Shown here in pieces: positions 11,542 to 31,262 of a stretch of DNA of 64,000 nucleotides. The stretch's first letter is position 1. The number at the start of each line of letters is the position of its first letter. Position numbers and translations under genes: made by a program. The DNA comes from an uncultured Holophagae bacterium. Its GTDB lineage: Bacteria; Acidobacteriota; Thermoanaerobaculia; Thermoanaerobaculales; Sulfomarinibacteraceae. The DNA lies in NCBI GenBank assembly GCA_963714385.1, contig CAVQOJ010000002.1:326528-390527 (forward strand), read 5' to 3'. Under the pieces are notes generated by a model that saw only the letters and a list, made by a program, of their open reading frames with translations, made no database searches and was not told the DNA's origin.

Positions 11542-11614
11542 CGGGCGATCTCCCGCGGTCGGCCCTGAGCCCGCACTGTCAACCCGCGTTACTCACTGCT
11601 GCGCACTGGGGCGC

Positions 11615-12662: not shown

Positions 12663-13373
12663 ATGCAGATGAACTCCGAATTTCGGAACCGCCACGTCCT
12701 GCTCGTCGGATCGACGTCCGGCGCCATCGACCGATTTGCGCCGATGCTGCAGCGCGCCGGATTCGATGTCCACACCGTTCGGCCGAGCGAAATCGTCCTC
12801 GACCTGGTCATGGGCACCAACTTCGACGTCCTGATCCTGGGCTACCCGTTGCCGGAGATGGACATCCACAGGCTGCTGTACTCGATCCGGGCGGAAGGCT
12901 CGGCGAGCCACGACGCAGGGGTGTTGCTGCTCGCGCGGCCGGGCTTTCTCGACGCGGCACAGGCGCTGCTGTCACTGGGAGCGAACCGCGTGGTCGGCCT
13001 GGATTGGACGGAATCACGTTTCTGGCAGTCGGTCGGAGATCTCCTCAACGTAGCCCCTCGGGCGCGGCTCAAATCCATGCTCTACGCCGACGTCGAGGCG
13101 TCCGAGGCCCGCGACCGGCTCCTCTACCGCACGGTCAACGTCTCCCGGACCGGCATCCTCCTCCGGGGCGACGACCTGTTCACCCCGGGCACGATCTTCG
13201 ACTTCGCGTTCCGCCTCCCGTCAGAGCCCCGACCCGTGGAAGGGCGCGCCGAGGTGGTCCGCCGCGCCGATCCCGACCGGGAGGGGATGTCCGGAATCGC
13301 CGCCCGGTTCGTCAACCTCCAGGACGACGGGCACTTCCGGCTCAAGCAGTACGTCAAGTACTTCCACGCCTAG
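12663..13373 (+). CDS. pseudo-receiver (REC-like) + PilZ domain protein, putative c-di-GMP effector
   Basis: C-terminal PilZ motifs RARLK (RxxxR) and NVSRTG (D/NxSxxG). The N-terminal CheY-like fold lacks the acidic pocket (LLVGSTSG; LILGYPLPEMD). Confidence 0.65.
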   Translation: MQMNSEFRNRHVLLVGSTSGAIDRFAPMLQRAGFDVHTVRPSEIVLDLVMGTNFDVLILGYPLPEMDIHRLLYSIRAEGSASHDAGVLLLARPGFLDAAQALLSLGANRVVGLDWTESRFWQSVGDLLNVAPRARLKSMLYADVEASEARDRLLYRTVNVSRTGILLRGDDLFTPGTIFDFAFRLPSEPRPVEGRAEVVRRADPDREGMSGIAARFVNLQDDGHFRLKQYVKYFHA

Positions 13374-13474: not shown

Positions 13475-14665
13475 TCAATGTCTCGGAAGGAGAAGGTAGA
13501 GCTCGCCGAGGTGTTTGGTGCGGCCGGCGAGGTCGCCGGCGGCATCGCCGGTTCCAAAAAAGAGATCGACGCGGCCGGGGCCGGTGATCGCGCCGCCGGT
13601 GTCCTCGATGACCACCAACCTCGACAGCGGTTGATCTCCGCCCGAGGGCGACGGCAGGCGACCCCGCAGGAAGGCCACGGTCGGCGCCGGAAACAGGCGC
13701 CGGTCGACGGCGATCGAGCGCCCGGCGGTCACCGGCACCCCGAAACAGCCGATCGGACCCCCCTCGGCAGGCAGCGAACGGAAGAAGACGTAGCTCGGGT
13801 TGTAGCTCAGCACCCGCACCACCTCCTCCGGGTGGGCGTGCAGGTACGCCTTGATCGCCTGCATGGACATCTCGTCGGGGGTCATCGCACCCTCGTCGAG
13901 CAAGAGCCGCCCGATCGAGCGGTAGGGATGCCCGTTGCCCGAAGCGTACCCGGCACGGAGCCGTTCGCCACTCGGAAAGACCAGAGTTCCAGACCCCTGG
14001 ACCTGCAGGAAGAAGACCTCCACGACGTCATCCAGGTAGCCGAGAACCTCCGGAGTTGCCGGCAAACCCTCCTCGAAATCGATCTCGCCTCGGTCCGGGA
14101 ACGGAACCAGCCGCGACCCGTCGAGTCGCCCCACCAGTGACTTCCGGTCGCACTCCACCCCGAAATCGGAGAGGTCCAGGCTGATGAGATCGCCGGGAAT
14201 CACATAGATCGGGTACACGAACGGCGACTCGGCGATGCGACGGGCATCGAGCAGCGGCTCGTAGTAGCCGGTGATCAAGACCTCTCCCCGTCCATCGCGG
14301 CCGGCAGACCGAAGCAGGACGAAGCTCTCCTGCAGGGCCTTGGTCCGAGTCGACGGATCCCCAAACCCCTCCACGATGGCCGCGGCCAGCCGCAGGCCCG
14401 AGGCGAGCTCGGCGGCCGATCGTCGGTGACTCCCGAACAGGAAGCTCCGTTCAGGCTGGAGACCCTCGAGGTACTGCAAACCGTATCCCACCGCCTCGGC
14501 GAAGCTGGCGGGATCCAGGTCATCCAGCAGGGACGGCCACTGACTCTCCGGCACCACCTCGAATGGTGCGGGGGCCGGTACCGGGGGTGGCGGGGTGGTG
14601 GTTGCGCACGCCCAACCCAACACGGCGGACGCCAGAGCCGGCGCCGCCCGCCACGAACGGATCAA
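13475..14665 (-). CDS. mltA: membrane-bound lytic murein transglycosylase A (MltA family) lipoprotein
   Basis: C-terminal ~400 aa of track ORF 13475..15931. ITGYYEP, FFLQVQGSG, GYASGNGHPYRSIGR, DTGGAI motifs. Lipobox LGWAC. Proposed TTG start 14665 overlaps the dctM stop (TTGA). Confidence 0.8.
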   Translation of the reverse strand: MIRSWRAAPALASAVLGWACATTTPPPPVPAPAPFEVVPESQWPSLLDDLDPASFAEAVGYGLQYLEGLQPERSFLFGSHRRSAAELASGLRLAAAIVEGFGDPSTRTKALQESFVLLRSAGRDGRGEVLITGYYEPLLDARRIAESPFVYPIYVIPGDLISLDLSDFGVECDRKSLVGRLDGSRLVPFPDRGEIDFEEGLPATPEVLGYLDDVVEVFFLQVQGSGTLVFPSGERLRAGYASGNGHPYRSIGRLLLDEGAMTPDEMSMQAIKAYLHAHPEEVVRVLSYNPSYVFFRSLPAEGGPIGCFGVPVTAGRSIAVDRRLFPAPTVAFLRGRLPSPSGGDQPLSRLVVIEDTGGAITGPGRVDLFFGTGDAAGDLAGRTKHLGELYLLLPRH

Positions 14666-15927
14666 GGCACCAGGGCCAGAGAAAGCCACGGCAGGTAGGT
14701 GATGAGCAGCACGCAGATCAACAGAATGACGAGGAACGGGATCGCCGCCCTGTAAAGCAGAATGATCGGTTTTTCGAACCGGTAGCTCGCGATGAACAGG
14801 TTGATGCCTACCGGAGGGGTGCAGTAGCCGATCTGCATGTTGGCCAGGAAGATGATGCCGAGGTGGATCGGGTCGACGCCGTAACCCATCGCCAGCGGGA
14901 GGATCAGCGGCACCACGATCACCAGCGCCGAGAACACATCGAGCATGGTGCCGAGCAGCAGCAGGAAGATGTTGAGCAGAATCAAGAAGGTGAGCTTGCT
15001 CGACACGTGGGTGGTCACCGCGGCGAACAGCTTGGTGGGAACCTGGGCGTCGATCATGTAGTTGGTGGAGGCGAGCGACGCACCCAGGATGATCAGAATG
15101 CCGCCCACCATCATCATCGACTCGCGCATGATCCCGGGCAGACGGCGCATCGGGATCTCCCGATAGATCAGGACCTCCACCACGAACACGTAGACCACGG
15201 TCACTGCCGCCGCCTCGGAGACCGCGAATATTCCGCTGTAGACACCGCCGAGCACGATCACGGGGAGGGGGGCCTCCCACATCGCTTCGCGCAGCGCCGC
15301 TCCGACCTCGCCAAAGCTGAAGGGAGGGGCCACCACCGCTGCGGTGGTCACCTGCCGGCCGGCGCGATAGCTCCACATCGCCAGCAGCCCGAGCATGAGC
15401 ACCCCCGGCAGGATGCCGGCGATGAACAGCTTGTCGATGGGCACCTCGGCGACGATTCCGTACAGGATGAGCGGCAGCGAGGGGGCGAACAGCAGACCGA
15501 GGCTGCCCGAGGTCGTGATCAGACCGAGATTGAACTTCTCGGTGTACCCGGCGTCGCGCAACGCCGGGTAGAGCAGCGCGCCGAGGGCGACGATGGTCAC
15601 CCCGGAGGCACCGGTAAAGGCCGTGAACAGAGCGCAGGCCACCAGCGCCACCACTGCGAGCCCGCCGGGAAGCCACCCGAAAAGCGCGTTCGACGCCCGC
15701 ACCAGCCGCCGCGGGGCTTCGCTCTCCCCGAGCAGATAACCGGCAAAGGTGAACAGTGGGATGGCGAGCAGCACCGGCGTTTCGGCGATCCGGTACATCT
15801 CCATCGGCACGATCATCGGATCGACGCCGGTCTTCGAAAACCCGATCAGAGCGCTGGCCGCGATCACCGCGAACAGCGGGGCTCCCAGCACGGCCAACAG
15901 GATCAGGGCGAGACCGATGAGGATCAT
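14662..15927 (-). CDS. TRAP transporter large permease (DctM family)
   Basis: Polytopic membrane protein MILIGLALILLAVLGAPLFAV.... Start ATG 15927 overlaps the dctQ stop (ATGA). Confidence 0.9.
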   Translation of the reverse strand: MILIGLALILLAVLGAPLFAVIAASALIGFSKTGVDPMIVPMEMYRIAETPVLLAIPLFTFAGYLLGESEAPRRLVRASNALFGWLPGGLAVVALVACALFTAFTGASGVTIVALGALLYPALRDAGYTEKFNLGLITTSGSLGLLFAPSLPLILYGIVAEVPIDKLFIAGILPGVLMLGLLAMWSYRAGRQVTTAAVVAPPFSFGEVGAALREAMWEAPLPVIVLGGVYSGIFAVSEAAAVTVVYVFVVEVLIYREIPMRRLPGIMRESMMMVGGILIILGASLASTNYMIDAQVPTKLFAAVTTHVSSKLTFLILLNIFLLLLGTMLDVFSALVIVVPLILPLAMGYGVDPIHLGIIFLANMQIGYCTPPVGINLFIASYRFEKPIILLYRAAIPFLVILLICVLLITYLPWLSLALVP

Positions 15928-16442
15928 CCATCCCCCCGATCGCCCAGGACCGCCCTCAGGTGGTGGCCGGCATAGACCAGGTAACGCACGGCAATCACCG
16001 TGAAGGCCACGGGCAGGATCAGCTCGCACACCCACATGGGGACCGACGCGAATAGCGTGGTGCCGGCCTCCCGGTCACTCTGCAGCAGGCGCCAGGCGTT
16101 CCAGCCCACCGCCAGGGAAACCCCGGCGGTGAAGAGATCGGTGAACACGCGGAGCGCCGCCTTCGACCGTTTCGACAGAAACCGCGACACGGCGTCCACC
16201 GAGATCTGTTTGTCGAACCGGGTCGCTACCATGGCGCCGACCATGCCGACCCAGAGCACCATCACCCTCAGCGAGGGGTCCGCCCACAGCAGACCCCTCC
16301 CGAGGACGTTCCGAAACAGAATCTGGCTGGCCGCCAAAACGATCATTCCCGCCAGCAGCGCCACCAGCAACCCGTCCTCCACCGCCTCCACCGCCCTCAG
16401 CAACGGGCTTCTGGGAACGCCGCCAGCCGGGCGGTCGCTCAC
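15924..16442 (-). CDS. TRAP transporter small permease (DctQ family)
   Basis: ~172 aa, 4 hydrophobic helices. GTG start 16442 overlaps the dctP stop (GTGA). The track ORF N-terminal extension is rejected. Confidence 0.75.
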   Translation of the reverse strand: MSDRPAGGVPRSPLLRAVEAVEDGLLVALLAGMIVLAASQILFRNVLGRGLLWADPSLRVMVLWVGMVGAMVATRFDKQISVDAVSRFLSKRSKAALRVFTDLFTAGVSLAVGWNAWRLLQSDREAGTTLFASVPMWVCELILPVAFTVIAVRYLVYAGHHLRAVLGDRGDG

Positions 16443-19111: not shown

Positions 19112-20521
19112 ATGAAAGCCGAAAATTCCGACGATCGCTGTCGGCCCTTCATCGCTCGAATGGAAGCGGCCGGCCTGCCGCCGCGGGCAATCTCCACCTT
19201 CTGCCACCACCTGCGCACGCTGACCTCGGGAGCCGGGGCCACCCTGGACCGAGACTCCATCTGGCCGGTCGAGTCGCTGCCGGACTCGGAATCGCTCGGC
19301 GGCGCGGGGAGCGCCGGGCGTGCGGCGCTTCAACGAGTCGTGGTCATCAAGCTGAATGGTGGGCTCGGCACCTCAATGGGCCTCGATCGCGCCAAGTCCC
19401 TGGTCGAGGTGCGCGGTGGATACGCCTTCCTCGACCTCATCGCCCGCCAGCTCATGGCGCTGCGCCGGCGGTTCGACTGCGCCGTCCCGCTGCTGCTCAT
19501 GAACAGTTTCAACACGGCGGACGACACCCGACGGGCGCTGGCGAACCACCCGGATATTCCTGTTGCCGGCCTCCCCCTGGGCTTCCTCCAGGGCAGCGTC
19601 CCGAAGGTCGTCGAGAACGGCCTCCGACCGGCCGTCTGGCCCGCCGATCCGCGACTGGAGTGGTGCCCCCCCGGCCACGGCGATCTCTACACCTCGCTCG
19701 ACACTACCGGCTTGCTGGCCAACCTGCTCGACCGCCGGTACGACGTCGCCTTCGTGTCCAACGCCGACAACCTGGGAGCGGTGCTCGATCTGGACATCCT
19801 CGGCCACCTGGTAGAGCGGCGACTGCCGTTCCTGATCGAGGCGGCGGACCGCACCACCGCCGACCGTAAGGGCGGCCACCTGTGCCGGCTCGGCGACGGT
19901 CGCCTCGCCCTGCGCGAGTCCGCACAGTGCCCGGTGGGAGAGGAAGAGGATTTTCAGGATGTCGGACGATATCGGTACTTCAACACCAACAACCTCTGGC
20001 TGCACCTGCCGTCGCTGCGCGAGCTGCTCGACCGCCATGCCGGGGTGATGCCGCTGCCCACCATCGTCAACAAAAAGACCATCGATCCCCGGGATCCCGA
20101 TTCGCCCGCCGTCCTCCAGCTCGAGACCGCCATGGGCGCCGCGCTGCCCCTGTTCGAAGGCGCCGAGGCGATCCGCGTCCCGCGGAGCCGGTTCTCACCG
20201 GTCAAGAACACCGACGACCTGCTGGCGGTGCGCTCCGACGCCTATCGGCTGACCGAAGACGGTCGCGTCATTCTGGACGAGTCCCGCCGGATGCCACCGG
20301 TGGTTTCATTGGACCGGCGGTTCTTCAAGCTCATCGACGACTTCGAGGCGCGCTTCCCGTTCGGCGCGCCGTCGCTGCTGGCCTGCGACTCCCTGACCGT
20401 CGACGGGGACGTCACCTTCGGGCGGGGTGTCGAGCTTCGAGGTGACGTTCGGATCACCGCTGCCGCCGGACCCGCGACCGTCGCGGACGGCTCGATCTTC
20501 ACAGGTGATGTTCTGCTTTGA
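19112..20521 (+). CDS. UTP--glucose-1-phosphate uridylyltransferase, UDPGP (eukaryotic-type) family
   Basis: VVIKLNGGLGTSMGLDRAKS, LMNSFNT, PPGHGD motifs. Start at ATG 19112 after GGAGG. Confidence 0.8.
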   Translation: MKAENSDDRCRPFIARMEAAGLPPRAISTFCHHLRTLTSGAGATLDRDSIWPVESLPDSESLGGAGSAGRAALQRVVVIKLNGGLGTSMGLDRAKSLVEVRGGYAFLDLIARQLMALRRRFDCAVPLLLMNSFNTADDTRRALANHPDIPVAGLPLGFLQGSVPKVVENGLRPAVWPADPRLEWCPPGHGDLYTSLDTTGLLANLLDRRYDVAFVSNADNLGAVLDLDILGHLVERRLPFLIEAADRTTADRKGGHLCRLGDGRLALRESAQCPVGEEEDFQDVGRYRYFNTNNLWLHLPSLRELLDRHAGVMPLPTIVNKKTIDPRDPDSPAVLQLETAMGAALPLFEGAEAIRVPRSRFSPVKNTDDLLAVRSDAYRLTEDGRVILDESRRMPPVVSLDRRFFKLIDDFEARFPFGAPSLLACDSLTVDGDVTFGRGVELRGDVRITAAAGPATVADGSIFTGDVLL

Positions 20522-20586
20522 GCGGTCTGGGCGATCGGGCGATGTGCTGGTCGCTAGTCGCTGGTCGCTGGACCCCCGCCCGCCCC

Positions 20587-20732
20587 ATTGCGAATTACGA
20601 ATTGCGAATTGACCGCCTGCCGAGTCCGCCGAGGTGAATCCAGGTGTTTCTCGACGTTAGAAGACACTTCGAGGCAGTCGCCACGATCTCGGACGTCAAC
20701 AATTCGTAATTCGCAATTCGTAATTCGCAATC
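20587..20732. repeat. AATTCGY hairpin element (heptad arms + conserved core)
   Basis: Left arm attgcgaattacgaattgcgaattg (20587-20611). Core accGCCTGCCGAG...gatCTCGGACGtcaa. Right arm aattcgt aattcgc aattcgt aattcgc (20700-20732), the reverse complement of the left arm. Confidence 0.9.
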
Positions 20733-20815
20733 AATCGGCAGGGCCGGCACGCCGCGCACTGCGAGACCCCGCACTCGATGTGTAGAATACCCCCCACGCT
20801 TTTTGAGGAGGTCCC

Positions 20816-22852
20816 ATGACCGACCAGCCGAAGTCTCTGCCCGAAAACGCGTATCGCGAGCTGAAACCCGGCGAGACCTACACCCCGGTGATCCCGGAGG
20901 AGCGGGGAACCCTCGAGGTCACCGTGCGGTCGGTGTTGTTCGGGCTCTTCATGGGAATCTTGTTCTCCGCGGCGGCGGCCTACATCGCCCTCAAGCTCGG
21001 CCAGGGCATCGAGTCGGCGATTCCCATTTCGATCCTCGCCATCGGCTTCTCGGCGCTGCTCGCCCGCAAGTCGACCCTGCTGGAGAACGTCAACATCCTC
21101 GCCATTGGAGCCACGTCGGGCATCCTGGTCGGCGGCTCGGTGTTCACGATGCCCGCCATCTTCGTGCTCGGCCTCCAGGACCGCACCTCGTTCTTCCAGA
21201 TCTTCATCGTGCCCTTCCTCGGCGCCTGTCTCGGGGTGGTCTTCCTGATCCCGTTCCGCCGCTACTTCGTGGCCGAGATGCACGGCAAGCTCCCCTATCC
21301 CGAGGGCACCGCCATCACCGAGATCTTGATGACCGGCGAGCGTGGCGGCCAGCAGGCCAAGGTGCTGGTGTCGGCCATGGGCATCGGTTTCGCCTTCGAT
21401 TTCGTGGCGCTCACCTTTTCGGCCTGGAGAGACATCTTCACCACCGGGCTGGTCCGCGCCCTCGACCCTTTGACCCACAAGGTGAAGGCCGTCTTCGCCA
21501 TCAACACGTCGGCCGCGGTGCTCGGCCTCGGTTACATCATCGGCGTTCGCTACGCCTCGATCATCTGTGCCGGTTCGTTCCTCGCCTACTTCGTGTTGGT
21601 GCCGCTGGTGGCCTGGATCGGCGCTCTCGTGCCCGGCATCGTCGGCGGCGGCCCCGCCCCGATCGCCGAAATGGGTGCCGAGGACATCTTCTTCGAGTAC
21701 GTGCGGTTCATCGGCATTGGCGGCATCTTCATGGCCGGAATCATCTCCATCGTCAAGATGTCACCGGTGATGGTGCAGGCGTTGGGCAAGGCCTTCACCG
21801 AGATCCGCAAGATGGTCACCGGCGGGCTCCGCACCGAAGCCAAGAGGACCGATACCGACATTCCGATGGGCCTGGTGGTGGTCATGACGGCGGTGGTGGC
21901 GGTGGTGATCTGGCTCTACTTCCGGTTCTCGGTGCTCGCTGCGAATCCCGAGGCCACCAAGATCGCCACGTACGCGTTGATCCTCACCCTGACGGTGTCG
22001 TTCCTGTTCGCCGCCGTCTCGGCCTGGGCGGTGGCGATGATCTCGGTGACGCCGATCTCCGGCATGACCCTGACCACCCTGATCGTGTCCGCGGTCGTTC
22101 TGGCCAAGCTCGGCCTGACCGGCCCCGAGGGCATGCTGGCGACCCTGCTGATCGGCGGTGTCGTGTGCACGGCGCTGTCGATGACCGGCTCCCTGGTCAC
22201 CGAGTTCAAGGTCAGCTACTGGCTCGGCGCCACCCCGCGCAAGATCCAGTGGTCGAATATCCTGGCCGCGGCGGTCGCCTCGATCACGGTCACCGCCGCC
22301 ATCATGCTGTTCGCCTCCACCAAGGGCTACGTGGTGACTGCGGCCCACCCCAACCCCATGCCGGCACCCCAGGCCAACGCCATGGCGGCGGTCATCCAAA
22401 GCGTCATGGCCTCTGCCGAGGCGCCGTGGCTGCTTTATGGTGTGGGCGCCGTGATCGCCCTGATCGTCGAGATGCTCGGCGTGTCTTCCCTGGCCTTCGC
22501 CCTCGGCATGTACCTGCCCATCGAGCTCAACTCGCCGATCCTGTTCGGCGCCCTGGTCGCCGAGTACGTACGTCGATCCGCGCCGTCTGAAGACGCGCGC
22601 CGCGCCCGCAACAACCGCGGCACCCTGATCGCCTCCGGCCTGATTGCCGGCGGCGCATTGGCGGGCGTGGCCGACGGCGTGTTGAGCTGGATCGCCGATG
22701 CCCGCGGCGCCACCATCTGGTCCTTCGGCAACACCGGCGGGCTCGGCAACTGGCTCGGCCTGATCCTGTTCGCCGTCCTCGCCGGCTACGTGATCTGGGA
22801 CGCCTCGCGGGCCAAGGAGGAGGAGGGGGCGGGTCCCGAGATTTCAATGTGA
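20816..22852 (+). CDS. OPT-family oligopeptide transporter
   Basis: 678 aa, ~16 TM. N-terminus YRELKPGETYTPVIPEE...VRSVLFGLFMGILFSAAAAYIALKLGQ typical of bacterial OPT proteins. Confidence 0.85.
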   Translation: MTDQPKSLPENAYRELKPGETYTPVIPEERGTLEVTVRSVLFGLFMGILFSAAAAYIALKLGQGIESAIPISILAIGFSALLARKSTLLENVNILAIGATSGILVGGSVFTMPAIFVLGLQDRTSFFQIFIVPFLGACLGVVFLIPFRRYFVAEMHGKLPYPEGTAITEILMTGERGGQQAKVLVSAMGIGFAFDFVALTFSAWRDIFTTGLVRALDPLTHKVKAVFAINTSAAVLGLGYIIGVRYASIICAGSFLAYFVLVPLVAWIGALVPGIVGGGPAPIAEMGAEDIFFEYVRFIGIGGIFMAGIISIVKMSPVMVQALGKAFTEIRKMVTGGLRTEAKRTDTDIPMGLVVVMTAVVAVVIWLYFRFSVLAANPEATKIATYALILTLTVSFLFAAVSAWAVAMISVTPISGMTLTTLIVSAVVLAKLGLTGPEGMLATLLIGGVVCTALSMTGSLVTEFKVSYWLGATPRKIQWSNILAAAVASITVTAAIMLFASTKGYVVTAAHPNPMPAPQANAMAAVIQSVMASAEAPWLLYGVGAVIALIVEMLGVSSLAFALGMYLPIELNSPILFGALVAEYVRRSAPSEDARRARNNRGTLIASGLIAGGALAGVADGVLSWIADARGATIWSFGNTGGLGNWLGLILFAVLAGYVIWDASRAKEEEGAGPEISM

Positions 22853-22868
22853 GGCACCTCGTGCCCGA

Positions 22869-22942
22869 GTTGAAAGTTGAAAGTTGAAAGTTCCCGCCCA
22901 CCCTCCCTCTCGGGCGGGCGGAGAGATCTTCAATCTTCAATC
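22869..22942. repeat. heptad arrays (GTTGAAA x3 ... ATCTTCA x2) around a C-box/G-box palindrome
   Basis: gttgaaa x3 (22869-22892), cccgcccaccctccctctcgggcgggcgg, then atcttca atcttca atc (22926-22942). Confidence 0.9.
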
Positions 22943-22979
22943 ACCGCCACCAGCAGACAGCCGTCGGCCAGTCCGTGAA

Positions 22980-24019
22980 CGGTTAAGAGTTACACGTTAA
23001 ACGTTAAACGTTTGGTTCATCCGGGAAAGCGTGAGGTCGGTTCTTCCGATCCCGTTCCCGACGAAAAATCCAGCGTCAGGGTCAGGGTCAGCGTTCAGTG
23101 GCAGTAGCCGGGGCAGGTTACAGCGGACAGCGACTGGGGCCGGATGCAGCGATCAGGTGTGCGGCGGCTGCATGGTCCCCTCCGGGTCGTTCACGGGGTG
23201 AATGGGCATAGCTGGCGAGGGGGCCGGAGTCAAGGGCGCAATGCGGCCGGCCTAGGGGTGGTAAACCCTTGACACCGACCCCCTCACCAGCATTCGGGTG
23301 AGCATGAACGACCCGGAGGTGACCATGTCCAAAGCCGTCGGAAACACCAATCTCGTCGCCTACACCAAGGCGCTCGAAGCAGCAGGCATAGCCATCAAGC
23401 TCGTCATGAGAGTTCCCGCCCCTCTAAAATCGGTTGCCGATCAGGTGATCCGGTCGGCGAGTTCGGTCCCCGCCAACCTGGCGGGAGGACACGGCCGATT
23501 CGGAAGAGACCGCCAGCACCACTGGCGGATCGCCTATGCCTCGGCCAAAGAGGTCGACAGCCACCTGCGACTCCTCGCCGCCGCTGGTGCAGTCAATGGA
23601 ATCGGGGCAGAGAACGCCCTGGAGACCTTTGACCACGTTCGTGCGATGACGTGGCGCCTGCTCAATCCCATCTGAGCGCGCCCGGTTCTCCGATACTGAC
23701 GCTGTCAACTGACGCTGCCGCGGGTCCCTGCCGCTCCTAAGTAACTGGCCGTCGGTCCTGAGTTACTTCCCCGTTGTCTCCCACGGCAACGCGGGTGCGA
23801 TGCTGGTTTCTGACGCTGTCCCTGATTGCTGTTTCCGCGGATGAAGCCGCGGTTCCTCTTCGGGCGGGCGGTGCCGTTCCAAAATCCGACGTTGACCGAC
23901 CTCCACCTCACGGAATTCCGGATGAGCCAAACGTTAAACGTATGAGGAACCTCGGCGGCACAAACCACCGAGAACGGTCGCGTCGACGTTTAACGTGTAA
24001 CGAGTAACGTGTAACGCTG
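22980..24019 (+). mobile_element. foldback element copy 2 carrying a four-helix-bundle gene
   Basis: Termini aacgtttggttcatccgg (23008-23025) / ccggatgagccaaacgt (23918-23934). Heptad arms acggtta agagtta cacgtta aacgtta (22980-23014) and gacgttt aacgtgt aacgagt aacgtgt (23985-24019). ~70-bp insertion (about 23735-23807) relative to copy 1. Lies 150 bp upstream of tRNA-Gly. Confidence 0.6.
23325..23675 (+). CDS. four-helix-bundle protein (23S rRNA intervening-sequence protein / Avd-like family)
   Basis: 116 aa from the ATG preceded by GGAGGTGACC. Near-identical paralogue of 5522..5872. Confidence 0.8.
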   Translation: MSKAVGNTNLVAYTKALEAAGIAIKLVMRVPAPLKSVADQVIRSASSVPANLAGGHGRFGRDRQHHWRIAYASAKEVDSHLRLLAAAGAVNGIGAENALETFDHVRAMTWRLLNPI

Positions 24020-24122
24020 AATACCGGAGGAACCACTTCTTCCCACCTAGCCGGGGAGGCGAGTTCACGCCGCCTCGAGGCGACCTCCCTGGCCACGGCT
24101 GTGGGCTGCTGCAGGCGGTAAG

Positions 24123-24152
24123 TTGACAGGCAATATGCTTGATTGCTAGATT
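24123..24152 (+). promoter_or_regulatory. putative sigma70-like promoter of tRNA-Gly (TTGACA-18 nt-TAGATT)
   Basis: TTGACA 24123-24128 and TAGATT 24147-24152, 14 nt before the mature tRNA 5' end. Confidence 0.5.
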
Positions 24153-24166
24153 ATGCGTCCTGCTGA

Positions 24167-24242
<76 letters not shown>

Positions 24243-24255
24243 TACACGATCAACC

Positions 24256-24279
24256 GCCCGGCCCTCGGCCGGGCTTTTT
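24256..24279 (+). terminator. rho-independent terminator after tRNA-Gly
   Basis: gcccggcc ctc ggccgggc followed by ttttt. Confidence 0.7.
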
Positions 24280-24316
24280 CGCGTTTTGGAACCGGTCTGA
24301 ACTGGTCCTTCAACTC

Positions 24317-25282
24317 TCACTCGGAAGCAGGGTCGGTGGACCACTGGAAGTCGTCGACCAGGAGGGACGCGTCCCACACCATGTCGCCCGAGTCCCAAAT
24401 GACGAAGTACAGGGAGAACGTCGAGCCCGGCGTCACCGGGACGGCGGTACGGATCCACGGGGTCGCGCCGTGGTCCTCGAAACCGGTTCCGGCGAGCTGT
24501 CCAGGTCCGTCGACGCAGTCCGGATCGCCGCTGCACACCGTGATCGACTGGCTGTGGGCGCCCATGGGCGAGTGCCCCTGCGAATCCACCAGAATGTTCC
24601 GGTGGGTGGGATCGGTGCCCGGCGGCGGCGGATCCATGATGGCCGCAGCGATGTCGGTGTAGCTGCCGCATAGATTGAACGGGTAGTCGAAGGCGTGGAA
24701 CTTCCACCGGAAGGACAGCGACTCGGCATTTGGTGGCGCCTTGAGCACGAGCGACAGCCCCGCCGGGTCGTTTGGCTGATTGGTGGTGACGCCAGGGCAG
24801 AGCGGGTGCTCGTAGGGGAATCCCGGCGGAAACACCGACGCAATGCCCTTCTGAAACCCTACGGGGTCCTGGTAGCCGGGATCGCCCACCGCGCGGGCGG
24901 TCCCGCTCGACAGCGCGAGCAACCTCGACCCGGACGGAGAGACATTAGGACCGAAGCCGTCGAGCAGGCCGACCCCGAGCAGTCCGTCCGGGAAGTTCGC
25001 CAGCGGGATGCCGTTCGGCGTCACGTAGTCGGCGCTCACGAGCCCAGGGGAGCCGGCCACCGAGAGCTGACACAACTCCATCGCGGCCGCACCCGAGATA
25101 GGATCGGTGTCGTCGATCGCCAGAATGTCGTCGCAGGGGTCCACCGTCCTCGACCACTCGACGGTGTTGGCCCACTCGAAGCCGTCCGAGAAGATCATGT
25201 CTCCGGCCGGCGAACTCGGGGCCCAGAGCATCACCAGGACGCCGACAGCGAACGATTCGAAGAGCGTTGATTGGATCGACAC
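24317..25282 (-). CDS. secreted protein, choice-of-anchor-L-like domain
   Basis: 321 aa with N-terminal hydrophobic signal. Mature N-terminus DGFEWANTVEWS. Central SFRWKFHAFDYPFNLCGSYTDIAAAIMD resembles choice-of-anchor L proteins (assignment from memory, needs HMM). Confidence 0.55.
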   Translation of the reverse strand: MSIQSTLFESFAVGVLVMLWAPSSPAGDMIFSDGFEWANTVEWSRTVDPCDDILAIDDTDPISGAAAMELCQLSVAGSPGLVSADYVTPNGIPLANFPDGLLGVGLLDGFGPNVSPSGSRLLALSSGTARAVGDPGYQDPVGFQKGIASVFPPGFPYEHPLCPGVTTNQPNDPAGLSLVLKAPPNAESLSFRWKFHAFDYPFNLCGSYTDIAAAIMDPPPPGTDPTHRNILVDSQGHSPMGAHSQSITVCSGDPDCVDGPGQLAGTGFEDHGATPWIRTAVPVTPGSTFSLYFVIWDSGDMVWDASLLVDDFQWSTDPASE

Positions 25283-25559
25283 GGCAGGCCTCCCGTCAGC
25301 ACTGGTTTTTGAGAATCTCTCTCAAGAATATCCACGCAGGCTCATCGAGTCAAGCACGCCCAACGGCTGGCCCCCTACCAGTCCTTGCGTGGGCCTCGCG
25401 GCGAGCGGGGGTCCGGCAGTCGTCATCGGCGGGCGGCCTCCGGCATCGCGGCGATGGGAAACGCCGCACTCTGCCCGCTTGGAAGCCGCGCCGGCTCCGT
25501 GTTAGACTGCCCGTGAGCTTGAGCAACAATTGAGAAGGTTTTGCGAAAGGTGATCAATC

Positions 25560-26072
25560 ATGCAATCTAATAACAAGATTTGCTGTGCCTGCGTGCTGCT
25601 CATTGTCGCTGTGATGGTTCCGCGAATCGTCACCGCCCAGGTCACGGTTTTGAGCGGCACCCTCGGCCCCGGGGACCCGACCTTTCACCGGCCGAGCACA
25701 TCCTTCCCTCCGTGCAGCCTGTCATCCAACGGAACCGCCGTGTACTACGACGTCTACACCGATTATTTTGCGGGTGGGCTGGCCATGGTCACCATGGAGG
25801 GAACGGTCGATCGTCCCGTTCTCGCCAGCTACCCCGCGGGTTCGTTCAACCCCGCAAGCGCGTGCGACGACATTATCGGAGTCGGGGGTTGCGAACCCCT
25901 GCCGGTGACCTTCACCGCACCCATCTTCTTCAACGCCGGCACCTACGATGTGGTGATCACCACCTGCTACAACGGGGACGCTGGAGACTACACCATCACC
26001 GTGCTGGCTTTCCTGTTCATGGACGGCTTCGAGTCCGGCGACACCACGGAGTGGTCGCTGACGGTGCCCTAA
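25560..26072 (+). CDS. small secreted protein (PPC/beta-sandwich-like) ending in DGFESGDTTEWS motif
   Basis: 170 aa with signal peptide CCACVLLIVAVMVPRIVTAQ. Good codon bias. Divergent from 24317..25282. Confidence 0.6.
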   Translation: MQSNNKICCACVLLIVAVMVPRIVTAQVTVLSGTLGPGDPTFHRPSTSFPPCSLSSNGTAVYYDVYTDYFAGGLAMVTMEGTVDRPVLASYPAGSFNPASACDDIIGVGGCEPLPVTFTAPIFFNAGTYDVVITTCYNGDAGDYTITVLAFLFMDGFESGDTTEWSLTVP

Positions 26073-26116
26073 GCAGGACTGGGCGCGGCGCAGATAGGCG
26101 CTGAGGAAGGGGATTG

Positions 26117-26266
26117 CGCCCACCCACCGCGCCACCCATTGCGAATTGCGAATTGCGAATTGCGAATTCTGGCCTGCCGAGACCGTCACCGAGCAAAGCA
26201 CAACGACCTCGGACGCCGACAATTCGTAATTCGCAATTCGCAATTCACAATGGGGCGGGCGGGAGG
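26117..26266. repeat. AATTCGY hairpin element, shortest and most symmetric copy, flanked by C-box and G-box
   Basis: cgcccacccaccgcgccaccc | attgcga x4 (26138-26169) | tgGCCTGCCGAGaccgtcaccgagcaaagcacaacgacCTCGGACGCCGAC | aattcgt aattcgc aattcgc aattcac (26221-26251) | ggggcgggcgggagg. Confidence 0.9.
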
Positions 26267-26291
26267 CGGTACCCTGGTGGCCGGAGGGTCC

Positions 26292-26663
26292 ATGGATCGA
26301 ATCGTCTTTGCCTTGGGATCGCTGATCGCGGGTGTCGGTGTCATGCTCGGCGCCTTCGCGGCCCATGCGCTGAAAACCCGAATACCCGCTGATCTCCTGG
26401 CGATCTTCGAGACCGGGGTTCGCTACCAGATGTATCACGCCCTCGGACTCATGGCCCTGGCGTGGGCGATCCATCGATGGCCCGAGCGCAAGCTGACCAC
26501 CGCCGCATGGCTGCTGGTGGCGGGCACCGCGGTCTTTTCAGGCACCCTGGCGCTGCTCGCGCTCACCGGAGCCCGGTGGTTGGGGGCCATCACACCGATC
26601 GGCGGCGTTCTCCTGATCGGCGGCTGGCTGCTCACCGCCTGGCGTTTGTTCCGGCCGAGCTAA
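26292..26663 (+). CDS. DUF423 (YgdD/TMEM256-like) membrane protein
   Basis: 123 aa from ATG 26292 (GGAGGG upstream). FGSLIAGVGVMLGAFAAHAL...GVRYQMYHALGL, 4 TM. The upstream part of track ORF 26139..26663 is translated repeat array. Confidence 0.8.
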   Translation: MDRIVFALGSLIAGVGVMLGAFAAHALKTRIPADLLAIFETGVRYQMYHALGLMALAWAIHRWPERKLTTAAWLLVAGTAVFSGTLALLALTGARWLGAITPIGGVLLIGGWLLTAWRLFRPS

Positions 26664-26776
26664 TCGGTACCACGCATCTCACCGTTGCAGGGCTTTTCCA
26701 ACGGCTCCGAAGGTTCGCGGCAGGGTGCAACAACGAGATACGTTGCACGGGAACGGGAATCCAGCAACGCCGCCGC

Positions 26777-26825
26777 CTACTGCCTACTCCCCACTGCCTA
26801 CTGCCTACTCCCTACTGCCTGTTGC
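26777..26825. repeat. heptad array (CTACTGC/CTACTCC)n, 7 units, GC-richer family
   Basis: ctactgc ctactcc ccactgc ctactgc ctactcc ctactgc ctgttgc, between convergent genes. Confidence 0.9.
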
Positions 26826-26838
26826 CTCTCACGTCGTG

Positions 26839-27144
26839 TCAGATCGACCCGCGGGTGACCGCCGTCGGCCCGTCGAGGACGCCGAAGTCGGTCGACGTGA
26901 TGTTGGCGAGATTCGGGTGGGTCGCGACCGAGCTGAAGAGCTCGGTCTTGGCGTAGTCCTCCATCGCCTGCCGGTCCCGCCACACATAGACGCCGCCGTA
27001 GGTCCCGGTGTCCGAGTTCGCCAGCCAGACCTTGCGGACCAGCCCCGGAACCGCTGCGAATGCAGGCGCCAACTCGTCACAGAGCGCAGCGTAATCGGCC
27101 TCGCTCACTCCCTTCAGCTGGAAGTTGATGATCTGGATATGCAT
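26839..27144 (-). CDS. YdhR-like dimeric alpha/beta-barrel (putative monooxygenase) protein
   Basis: 101 aa from ATG 27144 (AAGGGGGA SD). MHIQIINFQLKGVSEADY...GGVYVWRDRQAMEDYAKTE resembles YdhR-family proteins. Confidence 0.6.
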   Translation of the reverse strand: MHIQIINFQLKGVSEADYAALCDELAPAFAAVPGLVRKVWLANSDTGTYGGVYVWRDRQAMEDYAKTELFSSVATHPNLANITSTDFGVLDGPTAVTRGSI

Positions 27145-27383
27145 CGTTCGTCCCCCTTTCGTGGGCTTCGCACTACATTTGAGATCGTGATTCACTTCAT
27201 AACGTAATGCCCGGGAGCCTCCGTGTCCAACCGCGGTTCGGGGTTGCTGAGATTCCATTCCCGGATCCCGAAGCTCGAACCCCAATCCTGAAGCCCGAGT
27301 TGACACTCGACCGCCGTGCGTTCCTTGTGACAGAAAGACGCCAGCGCGCACAGCGTCCGAAGTCGGCCGCACGGAGGTTTACA

Positions 27384-27560
27384 ATGATCGAGGAGCGACA
27401 CGCCATGGACACTCACTTCACCGGGGTATTCCAACAGGTTGACCGAGGCTGGATCGGATATGTGGAGGAGCTGCCCGGGGCCAATACCCAGGGCAGCACC
27501 CTCGAATTCGGTACCAGGTCAGAGGATCTTGGGATGTTGCGCCCTGGTCGACCGCATTGA
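27384..27560 (+). pseudogene. HicB-like (UPF0150) antitoxin N-terminal fragment
   Basis: FTGVFQQVDRGWIGYVEELPGANTQGSTLE matches the HicB N-terminal beta-sheet motif (..GY.a.vPeLPGc.tqG.TlEEa). Similarity stops exactly where the 18-bp inverted repeat starts (27510). Confidence 0.35.
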
Positions 27561-27596
27561 TTCTCGACAACTTCCTCGGATCCTCTGACCTGGTAC
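27510..27596. repeat. perfect 18-bp inverted repeat with 50-nt spacer
   Basis: gtaccaggtcagaggatc (27511-27528) and gatcctctgacctggtac (27579-27596). Confidence 0.85.
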
Positions 27597-27640
27597 GGAG
27601 ATTGTAATCTGCTGGTGTCGGCGAGTTCGGGATTCGGGGA

Positions 27641-27715
27641 TGGAGCCAACGGGCGGATTTGAACCGCCGACCTAGTGATTACGAATCACTTGCTCTACCC
27701 CTGAGCTACGTTGGC
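27641..27715 (-). tRNA. tRNA-Thr (anticodon CGU), CCA encoded
   Basis: Reverse complement gccaacgtagctcaggggtagagcaagtgattCGTaatcactaggtcggcggttcaaatccgcccgttggctcca. Acceptor gccaacg/cgttggc, anticodon stem agtga/tcact, loop ttCGTaa. Confidence 0.9.
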
Positions 27716-27774
27716 ACGGCGCGCAATTTACCATTCGTGTGGGTGGGAGACAAGTCCTCGGTCACCGCGTATCC

Positions 27775-27869
27775 GATTGCAAATTTCAAATTGCAAATTG
27801 CAAATTGCGGGTTGTCGGCGACCAGCATGGTCTTGGTTGAAGATTGAAGATTGGGAGATTGAAGATTCC
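27775..27869. repeat. two heptad arrays (AATTGCA x5; TTGAAGA x4)
   Basis: gattgca aatttca aattgca aattgca aattgcg (27775-27809). ttgaaga ttgaaga ttgggaga ttgaaga (27837-27869), followed by ccagcccaccc. Confidence 0.9.
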
Positions 27870-27882
27870 ACCAGCCCACCCA

Positions 27883-27926
27883 GATTCCTCGTCGGCCCTT
27901 CGGGCCTCATTCGGAATGACAGCAGG
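27883..27926 (+). repeat. partial copy of the cattcggaatgacag repeat family (family B)
   Basis: gattcctcgtcggcccttcgggcctcattcggaatgacagcagg matches the 3' ends of 40261..40428 and (inverted) 34027..34159. Confidence 0.8.
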
Positions 27927-28003
27927 AGGGTTGTGCCCCGGGTGGGTCGGGGGAATCTTGGATCTGGGTGGTCGAACGGTGAGAGTATCCGGACTGTCGG
28001 AGA

Positions 28004-28126
28004 GAATTCGAAATGCGAAATGCGAAATTCGAAAAACCGACCCCAAGGTCCGCGCTGGCTCGAGGCCCTCCCCAACTCGCCCCCTGTCGAGCAAAGACGT
28101 TCAACCTTCAACTTTTAACTTTTAAC
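28004..28126. repeat. two heptad arrays (AAATGCG/GAATTCG x5; TTTTAAC/CTTCAAC x4)
   Basis: gaattcg aaatgcg aaatgcg aaattcg aaaaacc (28004-28038). gttcaac cttcaac ttttaac ttttaac (28099-28126). Confidence 0.9.
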
Positions 28127-28143
28127 TCTCCACCAATACGCAC

Positions 28144-29277
28144 TCACCCCTCGGGCTGTCGCAGAGTGATGAGATAGATCTCCGATGGTGCCAGGAATCG
28201 CATCGGCGGCCCCCACTGGCCCGAGCCGCGGCTGACGATCTGGGTCATCGACCCGACCTTGTACAGGCCCGCGTAATGGGGGTAGGCCTTCTTGACGGCG
28301 AGGTGGAAGGGCCACAGCTGGCCGCCGTGGGTGTGGCCGTTGAGCATCAGATCGACTCCGGCATCGGCGGCGCGCCGCTCCTTCTCGGGAGCGTGCTGGA
28401 GCAGGACCACCGGCGCTCCCTCCCCCACTCCGTCGAGGGCTCGATCGAGGTCGGCCTCCGGCTCCCCGGTCTGCGCCGAGCCACGGGCGTCGGGGATTCC
28501 CGCCAGGTGCAGCCCTGGCACGATCTGGACCGATTGGTTGTCGAGCACGGTGAAGCCGGCGTCGGCGAGCAGTCGCCGCGCGCGGTCGCGCCCGGCGTAG
28601 TACTCGTGGTTGCCGAGCACGGCGAACACCCCCATTGGCGCCCGCAGGGTCGCCAGCTGGGGCAGCATCTCCTCCACCACTCCGGGGTCGCCGTCCACCA
28701 GGTCGCCGGTGATGGCGATAACGTCGGGTTCGAGGGCGTCGGTCTTGGCGATCAGCCGGTCGAGAAAGCTCGGCCCCAGGATCGTGCCGAGGTGGACGTC
28801 GGAGAGGTGAGCGATGGTCAAGCCCTCCGCCGCGTCCGGCAGGCGCGCGACCGGCACCTCGAGGCGGACGATGCGCGGACCGAGGCGAGCGCTGAGAATC
28901 GCCACCACCGCGGCCGCCAGGGTCAACGTCAGGGCGGCGACGCGGAGGGTGCCGACCCAGGGCCGCAGCACGGTGCCACCGAGGGTGACGACATCGACGA
29001 TCACCAGAAACGCCAGCAGCAGGAAGAGGGTGCCCATCCACACCGCGCCGGCGTACTCGAGTGCCCGGCCGGTCACGTGCCAGCCGGTCGCGTAGAGAAT
29101 CCGGCCCAGGGGGTAGCTGAACAAGCCGAGAATCAGCCCGACGAGGAGCAGTCGGCGGGCGGCCGGCGCCGCGAAGATGGGAACCGACCACAGCCGCCAG
29201 CCCACGTAGAGGTGCTGGCCGAGCCAGATCGTCAGCACGATGGTGAGGAAGACGGCGAAGCGCATGGACGAGCTCAT
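28144..29277 (-). CDS. membrane-anchored metallophosphoesterase (YkuE/calcineurin-like)
   Basis: 377 aa with N-terminal TM helices. HLSDVHLG, ITGDLVD, GNHEYY, GHTHGG motifs. Confidence 0.85.
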   Translation of the reverse strand: MSSSMRFAVFLTIVLTIWLGQHLYVGWRLWSVPIFAAPAARRLLLVGLILGLFSYPLGRILYATGWHVTGRALEYAGAVWMGTLFLLLAFLVIVDVVTLGGTVLRPWVGTLRVAALTLTLAAAVVAILSARLGPRIVRLEVPVARLPDAAEGLTIAHLSDVHLGTILGPSFLDRLIAKTDALEPDVIAITGDLVDGDPGVVEEMLPQLATLRAPMGVFAVLGNHEYYAGRDRARRLLADAGFTVLDNQSVQIVPGLHLAGIPDARGSAQTGEPEADLDRALDGVGEGAPVVLLQHAPEKERRAADAGVDLMLNGHTHGGQLWPFHLAVKKAYPHYAGLYKVGSMTQIVSRGSGQWGPPMRFLAPSEIYLITLRQPEG

Positions 29278-29329
29278 CGTATACCCAACGGGATCGAATC
29301 AGCAGTTATTGCCGGGATCCAGTACCGGG

Positions 29330-29522
29330 ATTGAAGATTGAAGATTGAAGATTGGAGATTCCGCTCGTCCAACCCATCGAAATGCGAAATGCGAATTGAG
29401 CGCCTGCCGAGTTCGCCGAGGGGAATCAATGTGTCTCTCGTATCAAGATGCCAGTTCTACGCAACCGCGACGATCTCGGACGCCGACAATTCGTAATTCG
29501 CAATTCGCAATTCGTAATTTGT
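29330..29522. repeat. heptad array (ATTGAAG x4) plus AATTCGY hairpin element
   Basis: attgaag x3 attggag (29330-29362). Then cgaaatg cgaaatg cgaattg | agcGCCTGCCGAG...gatCTCGGACGCCGAC | aattcgt aattcgc aattcgc aattcgt aatttgt (29378-29522). Confidence 0.9.
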
Positions 29523-29546
29523 TGACTCGTGCCGAAGTCGGCGACG

Positions 29547-31076: not shown

Positions 31077-31150
31077 CGAATCATCTTAGACGATCGGGCA
31101 AACGGCGAGACTTCAAATGAGAGTCGCCGAGTCCCCTCAGTCATGGGTGA

Positions 31151-31262
31151 CTGCAAATTGCAGATTGCAGATTGTCTCGCTCAACCCGCTGTTCAGGAGC
31201 GGGAGGGGGAAATTTTGAATTTGAAATTTTGAATCTGAAATTTGAGGCAGGGCGGGTGGCGG
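31151..31262. repeat. heptad arrays (AGATTGC x3; GAAATTT/TGAATTT x5) + G-box in the malQ/glgP divergent spacer
   Basis: ctgcaaattgcagattgcagattgtc (31151-31176). gaaattt tgaattt gaaattt tgaatct gaaattt (31209-31243). gggcgggtggcgg (31250-31262). Confidence 0.9.

Follow-up and report, generated by a model that had tools for sequence, protein, structure and literature searches.

What are the long, hairpin-capable elements that recur between the genes of this 64,000-nucleotide stretch of an uncultured Holophagae bacterium (contig CAVQOJ010000002.1, hereafter the window), and what might they do there? Seven such elements had been proposed from the letters alone, each with a left arm of GCGAATT/ACGAATT heptads, a junction, a variable centre, a second junction and an inverted right arm. 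All seven are present where they had been placed, and we name them by their starts at 9662, 20587, 26117, 29378, 38757, 49304 and 63294. The family they form belongs to a broader class of paired, inverted heptanucleotide arrays located between genes. We tentatively interpret it as a clade-specific foldback repeat, organized like the bacterial interspersed mosaic elements (BIMEs) and hairpin-forming doublets (REPINs) built from repetitive extragenic palindromic (REP) sequences, whose stem would act in the transcript as an RNase III site or a 3'-end element; we regard this as plausible but short of probable.

The reality of the family rests on two kinds of scan. A covariance model (R1), built from an alignment of 12 copies and a hand-drawn structure of 40 pairs, recovered precisely this set of seven from the window, with no further match at strong E-values. 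Six of them scored between 7e-28 and 9e-15 and the degenerate 9662 copy reached 6e-09, while the preferred strand exceeded the other by 6-22 bits. The two-unit motif CGAATTRCGAATT, allowing at most one mismatch, occurs 35 times in the window against 0.02 expected, and all but four of these matches fall within six copies; the 9662 copy contributes none because its arms consist of GAAAATT/ACAAATT units.

The 20587 copy, on the plus strand, illustrates the anatomy. A C-rich outer cap, CCCGCCCGCCCC (20575-20586, read directly), adjoins the left heptad arm, ATT GCGAATT ACGAATT GCGAATT G (20587-20611), which is complementary at 24 of 24 positions to 20708-20731 in one register. The left junction, GCCTGCCGAG (20615-20624), contains a CCG that is invariant and a G..CT..AG pattern that is nearly so in the 12-copy alignment. 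It is followed by a centre of 63 nt (20625-20687) and by the right junction, CTCGGACGTCAAC (20688-20700), which pairs with the left one only via CCGAG/CTCGG and carries conserved mismatches, and then by the right arm, (AATTCGT AATTCGC)x2 AAT (20701-20731). Across the family the order from outside to inside is a GC-rich cap, three to five (R)CGAATT heptads, the junction, an inner stem of 5-13 bp and a loop, so that the consensus reads CCCGCCCACCC ATT (RCGAATT)3-5 (ctg) GCCTKCCGAG - inner stem/loop - (gat) CTCGGACGCCGAC (AATTCGY)3-5 AAT GGGTGGGCGGG, in which the terminal CCCGCCCACCC and GGGTGGGCGGG caps are optional. In many copies such a C-rich or G-rich cap, of the CCCGCCCACCC type or its complement, borders the arms and lengthens the inverted repeat. 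The variable centre, first described as 30-70 bp long, falls into two size classes, a short form of 25-28 nt (26117, 38757, 49304, 63294 and most copies in other genomes) and a long form of 63 nt, seen in 20587 and 29378, two copies that share 81% identity over 148 nt. Nothing resembling a small open reading frame (ORF) or small RNA was seen in the long-form centre.

The uniform layout originally proposed needs qualification, as the 38757 and 49304 copies are inverted and several copies are degenerate. The best-preserved short-form copy (26120-26269, plus strand; 115.5 bits) retains both outer caps and has arms of 67 nt that are 78% complementary. The second long-form copy (29367-29524, plus strand) has a left arm decayed into CGAAATG units and lies 24 bp beyond the stop codon of MalQ, which is encoded on the opposite strand. 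Two short-form copies lie on the minus strand: one at 38757-38885, between the DHODH and GT2 glycosyltransferase genes, with a collapsed remnant at the orthologous site of locus L101 (described below), and a decayed one at 49295-49413, between convergent cyclophilin and RNase H genes, with degenerate junctions GCCTGCCGAC/CTTGGATGGCCCG. The copy at 63284-63397 (plus strand, short form), between convergent penicillin amidase and OB-fold genes, has the variant junctions GTCTACCGAG/CTCGGACGACAAA and a perfect 9-bp inner stem, CCGAGGTCG/CGACCTCGG. The most diverged copy (9659-9825), with no strand assigned, occupies the gap between convergent Wzy_C-like and ABC transporter genes; its arms are ACGAATT/GAAAATT/ACAAATT and (AATTTGT)x6, and it retains one recognizable junction, CCTCGGTAGACGCC. 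By that junction motif it is probably also in the opposite orientation, while the covariance model slightly favours the plus strand in its match at 9701-9817 (E-value 6e-09 on plus, 3e-07 on minus). A half element, (GCAAATT)n followed by GTCGGCG, lies at 27776-27830 on the minus strand and is, in an alignment read by eye, the orthologue of an L101 half element beside the same tRNA gene.

Is the family confined to this genome? Copies outside the window, in at least five other assemblies of related uncultured Acidobacteriota, dispose of the possibility, raised in the original prediction, that no further ones exist. The 12-copy alignment draws on unrelated loci in at least five assemblies. Its 34 invariant columns are confined to the arms, the junctions and the inner stem next to the right junction; the loops vary. 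A scan for the pattern CTCGGACGNCNACAATTCG, with one genome per species, picked out 100 stretches. Most are chance matches in unrelated taxa, and the genuine ones comprise 12 stretches (14 matches) from one metagenome-assembled genome (MAG), uncultured Holophagae MFD03804.bin.1.132, plus locus L084 from another MFD MAG. BLAST and regular-expression scans located canonical copies in the MFD MAG stretches and in the syntenic locus L101. In JGI metagenomes the strict 21-nt pattern was not found, and a looser pattern gave three matches, two of which are real and represent two contigs carrying the family. By this distribution the family is clade-specific rather than genome-specific and rare in public data, its lineage being Thermoanaerobaculia/'Holophagae'-like Acidobacteriota. 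The window itself has a GC content of about 65% and carries ordinary chromosomal genes (UDP-glucose pyrophosphorylase, OPT transporter, MalQ, glycogen phosphorylase, DHODH and ABC transporters), and the closest named relatives, at about 65% identity, are Acidobacteria and Thermoanaerobaculales MAGs. No Rfam family matches the elements, even at E-values up to 1; at gathering thresholds only two tRNAs pass in the window, and two tRNA genes lie at 24167-24238 (plus strand) and 27644-27715 (minus strand). A literature search for the arm or junction strings yielded nothing beyond one report of the ATTGCGAATTG repeat of Nostoc. The family could serve both as a marker and as an annotation mask for this poorly known clade of soil Acidobacteriota.

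The proposal that a conserved, asymmetric junction pair gives each copy a polarity is borne out: the two junctions are related but not complementary, and their mismatches are themselves conserved, a T.C mismatch being kept in 10 of 12 copies. Because these non-complementary bases are conserved, sequence-specific recognition by a protein is favoured over pairing, and, judging from conservation without pairing, some protein probably reads the junctions. The combination of heptad arms with a conserved, asymmetric and non-repetitive junction likewise implies a specific reader protein.

Can the elements fold, and is folding what selection maintains? Hairpin capacity holds for four of the six copies folded as RNA, which beat dinucleotide-shuffled sequences (z = -6.1 at 20585, -9.3 at 26136, -5.8 at 38764 and -5.8 at 63290), and fails for the remaining two. 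Compensatory changes between the arms, on which the original prediction had staked itself, do not appear; instead, the arms vary independently. At the variable heptad position the arm-to-arm pairs are G:T in 10 cases, A:C in 10, A:T in 5 and G:C in 4, which corresponds to random association, and the equal frequency of G:U and A:C (10 vs 10) means that neither strand is favoured as RNA. In the 12-copy alignment, 83.5% of the cells paired in the hand-drawn structure are indeed paired, compared with 84.7% in column shuffles; pairs with two-sided change number 3 compared with 6.2, and the covariation score is 0.070 compared with 0.085. The independent variation of the arms indicates that complementarity is a property of the conserved inverted sequence, and a selected RNA structure is not demonstrated.

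A role in transcripts is suggested by the position of the elements relative to genes. All seven copies are intergenic, and each has at least one stop codon at a distance of 9-65 bp. Three are located between convergent genes and four between tandem genes, and none occurs in the seven divergent gaps of the window. The 9662 and 63294 elements make up nearly the whole of their convergent gaps, as do those at locus L011 and in the L101 phosphorylase gap. Standing directly after stop codons and often filling convergent gaps, the elements would probably be transcribed together with the upstream gene, at the ends of mRNAs. The transcript would then fold into an interrupted stem of roughly 35-60 bp, which may be a processing site for the double-strand-specific RNase III, a barrier to 3' exonucleases, or both, and would thereby mark transcript ends. 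The precedent for this role is the intervening sequences (IVSs); an S23p element situated in 23S rRNA is a classical IVS. In the stretch scanned (20-40 kb), moreover, there is no excess of classical terminators: 12 terminator-like sites were counted against 11.0 expected from shuffles. The family is likely to help determine where mRNAs end in this stretch. The elements themselves would behave as selfish or domesticated DNA, with some protein probably reading the conserved junctions, arms evolving by slippage and concerted homogenization, and copies decaying through deletion of the centre.

Stable hairpins at gene ends might also be expected of stand-alone small RNA genes or classical intrinsic terminators, an explanation that we consider very improbable. 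The stems are AT-rich, unlike those of terminators, and no U-tract follows any of the seven copies, just as the original prediction had noted the lack of a T-run. The four elements within 20001-40000 are not among the terminator-like sites of that stretch, and no promoter-like site was found beside them. The lack of any Rfam match and of covariation points in the same direction. As a separate observation, the only convincing classical terminator in the 20-40 kb stretch (GCCCGGCC...GGCCGGGC followed by TTTTT) lies at 24256-24274, after the first tRNA gene.

The same positions bear on whether the elements act as double-stranded DNA, with CGAATT heptads and junctions forming operator-like or centromere-like sites to which a nucleoid-associated or regulatory protein would bind symmetrically on both arms. 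Such a site would agree with heptads that are conserved at all but one freely varying position of seven, with arms that vary independently of each other, with a conserved, asymmetric junction and with AT-rich AATT cores that are conspicuous at 65% GC; a preprint also reports heptamer repeats in promoter regulation in Nostoc (10.1101/2022.06.06.494920). The elements are situated at the 3' ends of genes, however, with none of the seven in a divergent promoter gap; a 7-bp phasing would place successive sites about 240 degrees apart on the helix, and no candidate protein is at hand. We therefore judge this explanation quite unlikely.

How far does the resemblance to REPINs and BIMEs extend? Like those of Pseudomonas and E. 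coli (PMC3116915), the elements are extragenic, multi-copy inverted doublets of about 100 nt that are predicted to form long hairpins, leave singlet remnants, consist of two related but non-identical halves, and show conservation without covariation. The singlets are half elements in which the right junction and an AATTCGC array are joined to unrelated left parts, for example AATCTTC or GAAAATC arrays, and they occur at L048, L078 (two), L024, L050 (two), position 13140 of L101 and position 27776 of the window. Taken literally, this resemblance would make each junction-plus-arm half a REP-like unit, recognized as single-stranded DNA by a REP-associated tyrosine transposase (RAYT; an IS200/IS605-like Y1 enzyme) encoded once elsewhere in the genome, with the inverted doublet as the unit of copying, according to the model described for REPINs (PMC3116915). 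The doublets and singlets, the conserved mismatches between halves, which recall the polarity of the Y and Z REPs of BIMEs, and a conservation pattern that fits protein recognition would agree with it. Against it, neither GCCTGCCGAG nor CTCGGACGCCGAC, with or without an arm, is self-complementary, so the halves are not short imperfect palindromes; a GTAG-like 5' tetranucleotide is absent; arms made of tandem heptanucleotide arrays with variable copy number are foreign to REPs; and a Pfam scan of 30 of the approximately 47 predicted genes of the window revealed no Y1/RAYT domain. A true REPIN system is thus an unlikely identity for the family.

The original label of a REP/BIME- or miniature inverted-repeat transposable element (MITE)-like family is consequently reasonable with respect to organization, but it gains no support as to the means of mobility, as no target-site duplication was seen at the seven copies and no transposase or RAYT among the ORFs and loci scanned. 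Like MITEs and eukaryotic foldback (FB) elements, the copies are small, non-coding and bounded by long terminal inverted repeats. In the FB elements of Drosophila, too, the inverted repeats are built of short tandem subrepeats. The window family differs from both in having no visible target-site duplication, defined termini or cognate autonomous element, and an autonomous element combining the family's termini with a transposase was not found in the window or in approximately 220 kb of related loci. Integron attC sites were also considered and rejected. They share an imperfect palindrome, conserved unpaired bases that give polarity, a variable centre and a location 3' of ORFs; the window elements, in contrast, have no R/L box motifs or integrase, their heptad arrays are lacking in attC sites, and their neighbours are housekeeping genes in mixed orientation that are syntenic across species.

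The behaviour of the family over time was followed site by site in two syntenic loci of other species, L101 and L102, whose MalQ proteins are 85% and 78% identical to that of the window. Across the three, orthologous intergenic DNA is unalignable apart from the array and element modules, and the occupant of a given gap differs. The 20587 and 29378 copies are absent at the orthologous L101 sites, which hold AATTCGG and AATCTTC arrays instead, and a full family copy stands downstream of the phosphorylase gene in L101, where the window has other arrays. The L101 counterpart of the 38757 copy (1790-1850) is a collapsed remnant consisting of a C-cap, ATTGCG, CGCCGAC-AATTCGT... and a G-cap, with its orientation to DHODH kept. 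Further centre-deleted remnants lie at 2975-3040 of L101 and at about 11660-11700 of L102. Beside the same tRNA gene, L101 has CGCCGAC(AATTCGC)4 at 13140-13180, and in the window half element at 27776-27830 every unit is AATTTGC; this case shows arrays to be long-lived, with units that change in concert.

Heptad arrays as such do not distinguish the family, contrary to the suggestion that being built from them is its hallmark. A strict scan found 37 period-7 arrays of many units in the window, and Tandem Repeats Finder many more. They average about 4.4 units, and their repeat units number at least a dozen, among them GAAAGTT, GAAAATT, GAAGATT, GCAAATT, GTCAAAA, GGAATTC, GTTAAAC, AGTTCTG and GCCTACT; many fit RMRANTT and are single steps apart (GCGAATT, GCAAATT, GAAAATT, GAAAGTT). 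Examples are found at 3813-3833, 22868-22892, 29329-29360, 34165-34200, 37630-37681, 40448-40489, 47299-47380, 52586-52624 and 54017-54067. Of the 1147 array bases, 1067 (93%) are intergenic, amounting to about 10% of intergenic DNA, and arrays are present in 20 of 33 gaps. For half of all genes an array lies no more than about 110 nt from the stop codon, and some arrays extend over it. Other inverted heptad pairs also exist in the window, for example at 52586-52704, and are weakly matched by the covariance model.

This abundance raises the question of whether the family is simply a neutral by-product, in which a 7-bp slippage bias and intra-strand template switching would produce inverted pairs that are tolerated in intergenic DNA and have neither a function nor dedicated mobility. 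Polymerase slippage has been hypothesized for heptamers by Mrazek 2007, as cited in PMC4679880 and PMC4692102. The share of intergenic DNA taken up by the 37 arrays, units that differ by single steps, the concerted change at the orthologous tRNA site, rapid turnover with collapsed remnants and the absence of covariation are all compatible with such an origin. What it leaves unexplained is the junctions: GCCTKCCGAG and CTCGGACGCCGAC, including their mismatches, are kept at unrelated loci in at least five assemblies while loops and other intergenic DNA have diverged, and the junction-plus-arm module recurs with unrelated left halves, which requires copying of a specific sequence beyond slippage alone. 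We accordingly find a purely neutral origin doubtful.

The arrays are accompanied by several smaller observations. Some heptad or octad arrays run into the 3' ends of coding regions and provide the final codons together with the stop, in the window (52586-52624 and 54017-54067), in L101 (1750-1776) and in L102 (500-540); the L101 DHODH, for instance, ends in ...IENRKSKI* within a GAAAATC array. Gene callers should therefore be used with caution here, given that arrays overlap stop codons and supply C-terminal tails. A dispersed intergenic module (CTCATTCGGAATGACAGC / GTCCTGAGCGAGCGAAGCGAGTCGAACGGATTCC) with heptad arrays is found at 34045-34164 and, inverted and 88% identical, at 40246-40361, as well as at 27883-27926, and it has relatives in the MFD MAG (L050). 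A composite repeat (40509-40591 vs 47330-47414, 83.5% identical and inverted) combines a CCCCTTCTCC-type tract, a TTTTCAA/ACAAATT array and a GGGTGGGCGGGTGGGAG cap; its G-rich caps contain four G3 runs and could in principle form a G-quadruplex. Arrays of the AATTCGG/TTCGGGA type end in a conserved tail, GGAAAACCGAYC, at 33815-33850, 3813-3845 and 28005-28045 of the window, at 11525-11555 and 20305-20345 of L101, and in L050, a recurrence that suggests a second family of modules in which an array is coupled to an anchor.

Comparable inverted arrays are known from other bacteria. Xanthomonas genomes contain 70-75 inverted (convergent) pairs of GGGAATC arrays each, capable of forming stem-loops and lying on average 28 nt from the ORF on their 5' side compared with 160 nt from the downstream ORF (PMC4692102), and in Nostoc PCC 7120 the repeat ATTGCGAATTG occurs 79 times on the chromosome and 26 times on plasmids (PMC2408588). 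The window elements correspond to the Xanthomonas type in being two convergent, intergenic arrays of one heptamer near an ORF end. With both systems they share tandem heptamers that lie between genes, usually some tens of bp away from where a neighbouring ORF ends, and a copy number that varies among relatives while the site is kept; with Nostoc PCC 7120 they share the repeat unit itself (ATTGCGAATTG). They differ in their conserved non-repetitive junction and core, not described for the Xanthomonas and Nostoc pairs. In addition, the Nostocales pairs are of reversed polarity (AATTCGC ... GCGAATT) around AT-rich centres that are unrelated, and the Xanthomonas unit is G-rich and capable of forming G-quadruplexes. 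The family is a lineage-specific addition to bacterial intergenic repeats that combines a REPIN/BIME-like organization with the inverted pairs of heptameric simple sequence repeats (SSRs). Heptamers are the commonest long SSRs in many bacteria, a statement that PMC4679880 and PMC4692102 attribute to Mrazek 2007. The reason for this dominance has been unclear since that year, and the family offers an entry point to it.

One such entry point leads to the S23p proteins. BLAST of the 26117 copy against plasmids returned 41 records, 32 of them from Nostoc; among the best 20 of the places listed, 14 had both arms matched on one strand, 180-450 bp apart. The Nostocales plasmid pairs read (AATTCGC)4 - centre - (GCGAATT)4, and in three of the plasmid records the centre is a gene for a 'four helix bundle protein' (PF05635/TIGR02436, the S23p protein of 23S rRNA intervening sequences). 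We sampled nine S23p loci (L106, L107 and L111-L117) on plasmids of Nostoc, Dolichospermum, Aulosira, Anabaena, Planktothrix, Ca. Chlorohelix and Bernardetia, and in seven of them the gene lies between inverted heptamer arrays of at least 37 nt, covering Nostocales, Planktothrix, Chloroflexota and Bacteroidota plasmids and hence three phyla. The array units around the sampled genes include AATTCGY (AATTCGC/GCGAATT in Nostoc, AATTCGT/ACGAATT in Dolichospermum, the unit of the window family in both), CAAGTCG, AAATTCA, AATCCCC/AATCGTA and TTAGTGA. Many of these genes are wedged within operons, between cas2 and cas1 or between the helicase and methylase of defence systems, and one apparently lies inside a cytosine methyltransferase gene. 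The literature searched contained no description of S23p genes between inverted heptamer arrays as a general rule, and nothing linking PF05635 to heptamers besides a study of the Coxiella 23S IVS (PMC4990558). That IVS combines an S23p ORF with a terminal stem of 28 bp and with GACAGAT heptamers that vary between strains, and in vitro RNase III cleaves it within the stem.

S23p genes are also present in the window itself, as two paralogues at 5522-5905 (minus strand) and 23298-23675 (plus strand). They belong to mutually inverted elements of about 0.9 kb (5302-6190 and 22979-24016) that are 87-91% identical and have conserved terminal junctions (TTGGYTCATCCGGRAA...; shared junction YGGNTCATCCGGRAA ... 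CACGGAATTCCGGATGAGCC), together with an internal 23-nt inverted repeat, CATGGTCACCTCCGGGTCGTTCA, that bears a Shine-Dalgarno sequence and ATG on each arm. The window S23p protein has 3,876 homologues at E-values of 1e-10 or lower, with at least 79% identity throughout the 120 listed, and at least six clusters of homologues occur on the window's own contig; a tblastn search of this Acidobacterial protein against plasmids gave no match. The heptads flanking the S23p elements of the clade vary from copy to copy and are sometimes direct, as if the element sat inside an array. An interpretation of their arms as inverted GTTAAAC arrays was rejected, since three copies at least (window copy B, L119 and L121) have direct heptads abutting their junctions. 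As an incidental observation, a canonical copy of the family and an S23p element with an Acidobacteriota-type junction occur together on CAVQPF010000009.1 (L084/L120). The archaeal label of this record, titled 'Candidatus Bathyarchaeota archaeon MFD09779.bin.2.127', is therefore probably a binning or naming error.

These findings would fit a joint explanation that we hold to be improbable at present. Heptanucleotide arrays and S23p genes might be two halves of one undescribed system of wide distribution, with the window foldbacks as its gene-less, non-autonomous miniatures. The pentameric S23p protein or a partner would recognize tandem heptamers at about one unit per subunit, with cassettes inserting in or next to arrays. 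The miniatures would be tolerated anywhere because RNase III would cut their stem in RNA, as in the 23S rRNA IVS. The link is consistent with the seven of nine sampled genes located between inverted arrays, with the high copy number of the S23p element in the clade, and with the presence of both heptamer arrays and an S23p protein in each of Xanthomonas, Nostoc and Coxiella. Similarities to IVS and S23p elements also include the long terminal stem of inverted repeats containing tandem heptamers (GACAGAT and cut by RNase III in Coxiella; PMC4990558) and the insertion of S23p cassettes between operon genes; the window elements differ in having centres of 25-63 nt without an ORF, in lying outside rRNA, and in junction motifs that were not found in the S23p elements of the clade. 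If true, such a system would explain the dominance of heptamers among long SSRs in scattered phyla as well as the role of the S23p protein and the origin of intervening sequences. The association of inverted heptamers with S23p genes across several phyla is in this sense a concrete candidate explanation, and the family, of moderate interest in itself, would gain in interest should the link prove general.

Returning to our preferred interpretation, that of a clade-specific foldback repeat whose transcribed stem serves RNase III or marks 3' ends, several observations weigh against it. Transcription and RNase III cleavage are inferred by analogy. The orientation of the elements relative to the upstream gene is inconsistent, the 29378 copy being antisense to MalQ and the 38757 copy sense to DHODH. 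Two copies fold weakly (z = -1.7 at 29376 and -1.25 at 49300), no better than shuffles, and neither RNAalifold nor the hand-drawn structure of 40 pairs obtained support from covariation. No direct repeat that could represent a target-site duplication borders any of the seven copies; outside the arms there is either unrelated sequence or an inverted C-rich/G-rich cap. In the S23p elements of the same clade the junction, YGGNTCATCCGGRAA, is a different one, and the flanking heptads vary and are sometimes direct. A 'master copy' of S23p type that combines GCGAATT arms with the GCCTGCCGAG junction was not found, tblastn of S23p proteins against all fetched loci giving none with GCGAATT arms in this clade. 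The cassettes of Nostoc and Dolichospermum, whose arms run in the opposite polarity (5'-AATTCGY ... RCGAATT-3'), do not carry the junction motifs.

Two further features of the window concern its genes. At 13475-16035, two long minus-strand ORFs overlap in different frames (13475-15931, 818 aa, and 14662-16035, 457 aa), and the AT skew at 14-16 kb, the region of these ORFs, is unusually high (0.26). The ORF of 1484 aa at 57395-61849 (minus strand) contains internal repeats of about 200 bp with 74-91% identity (57423-57964 vs 58112-58648), which makes its product a repeat-domain protein. Because the ORF overlaps the penicillin amidase gene (61034-63274, plus strand) at its 5' end, its true start probably lies further downstream.

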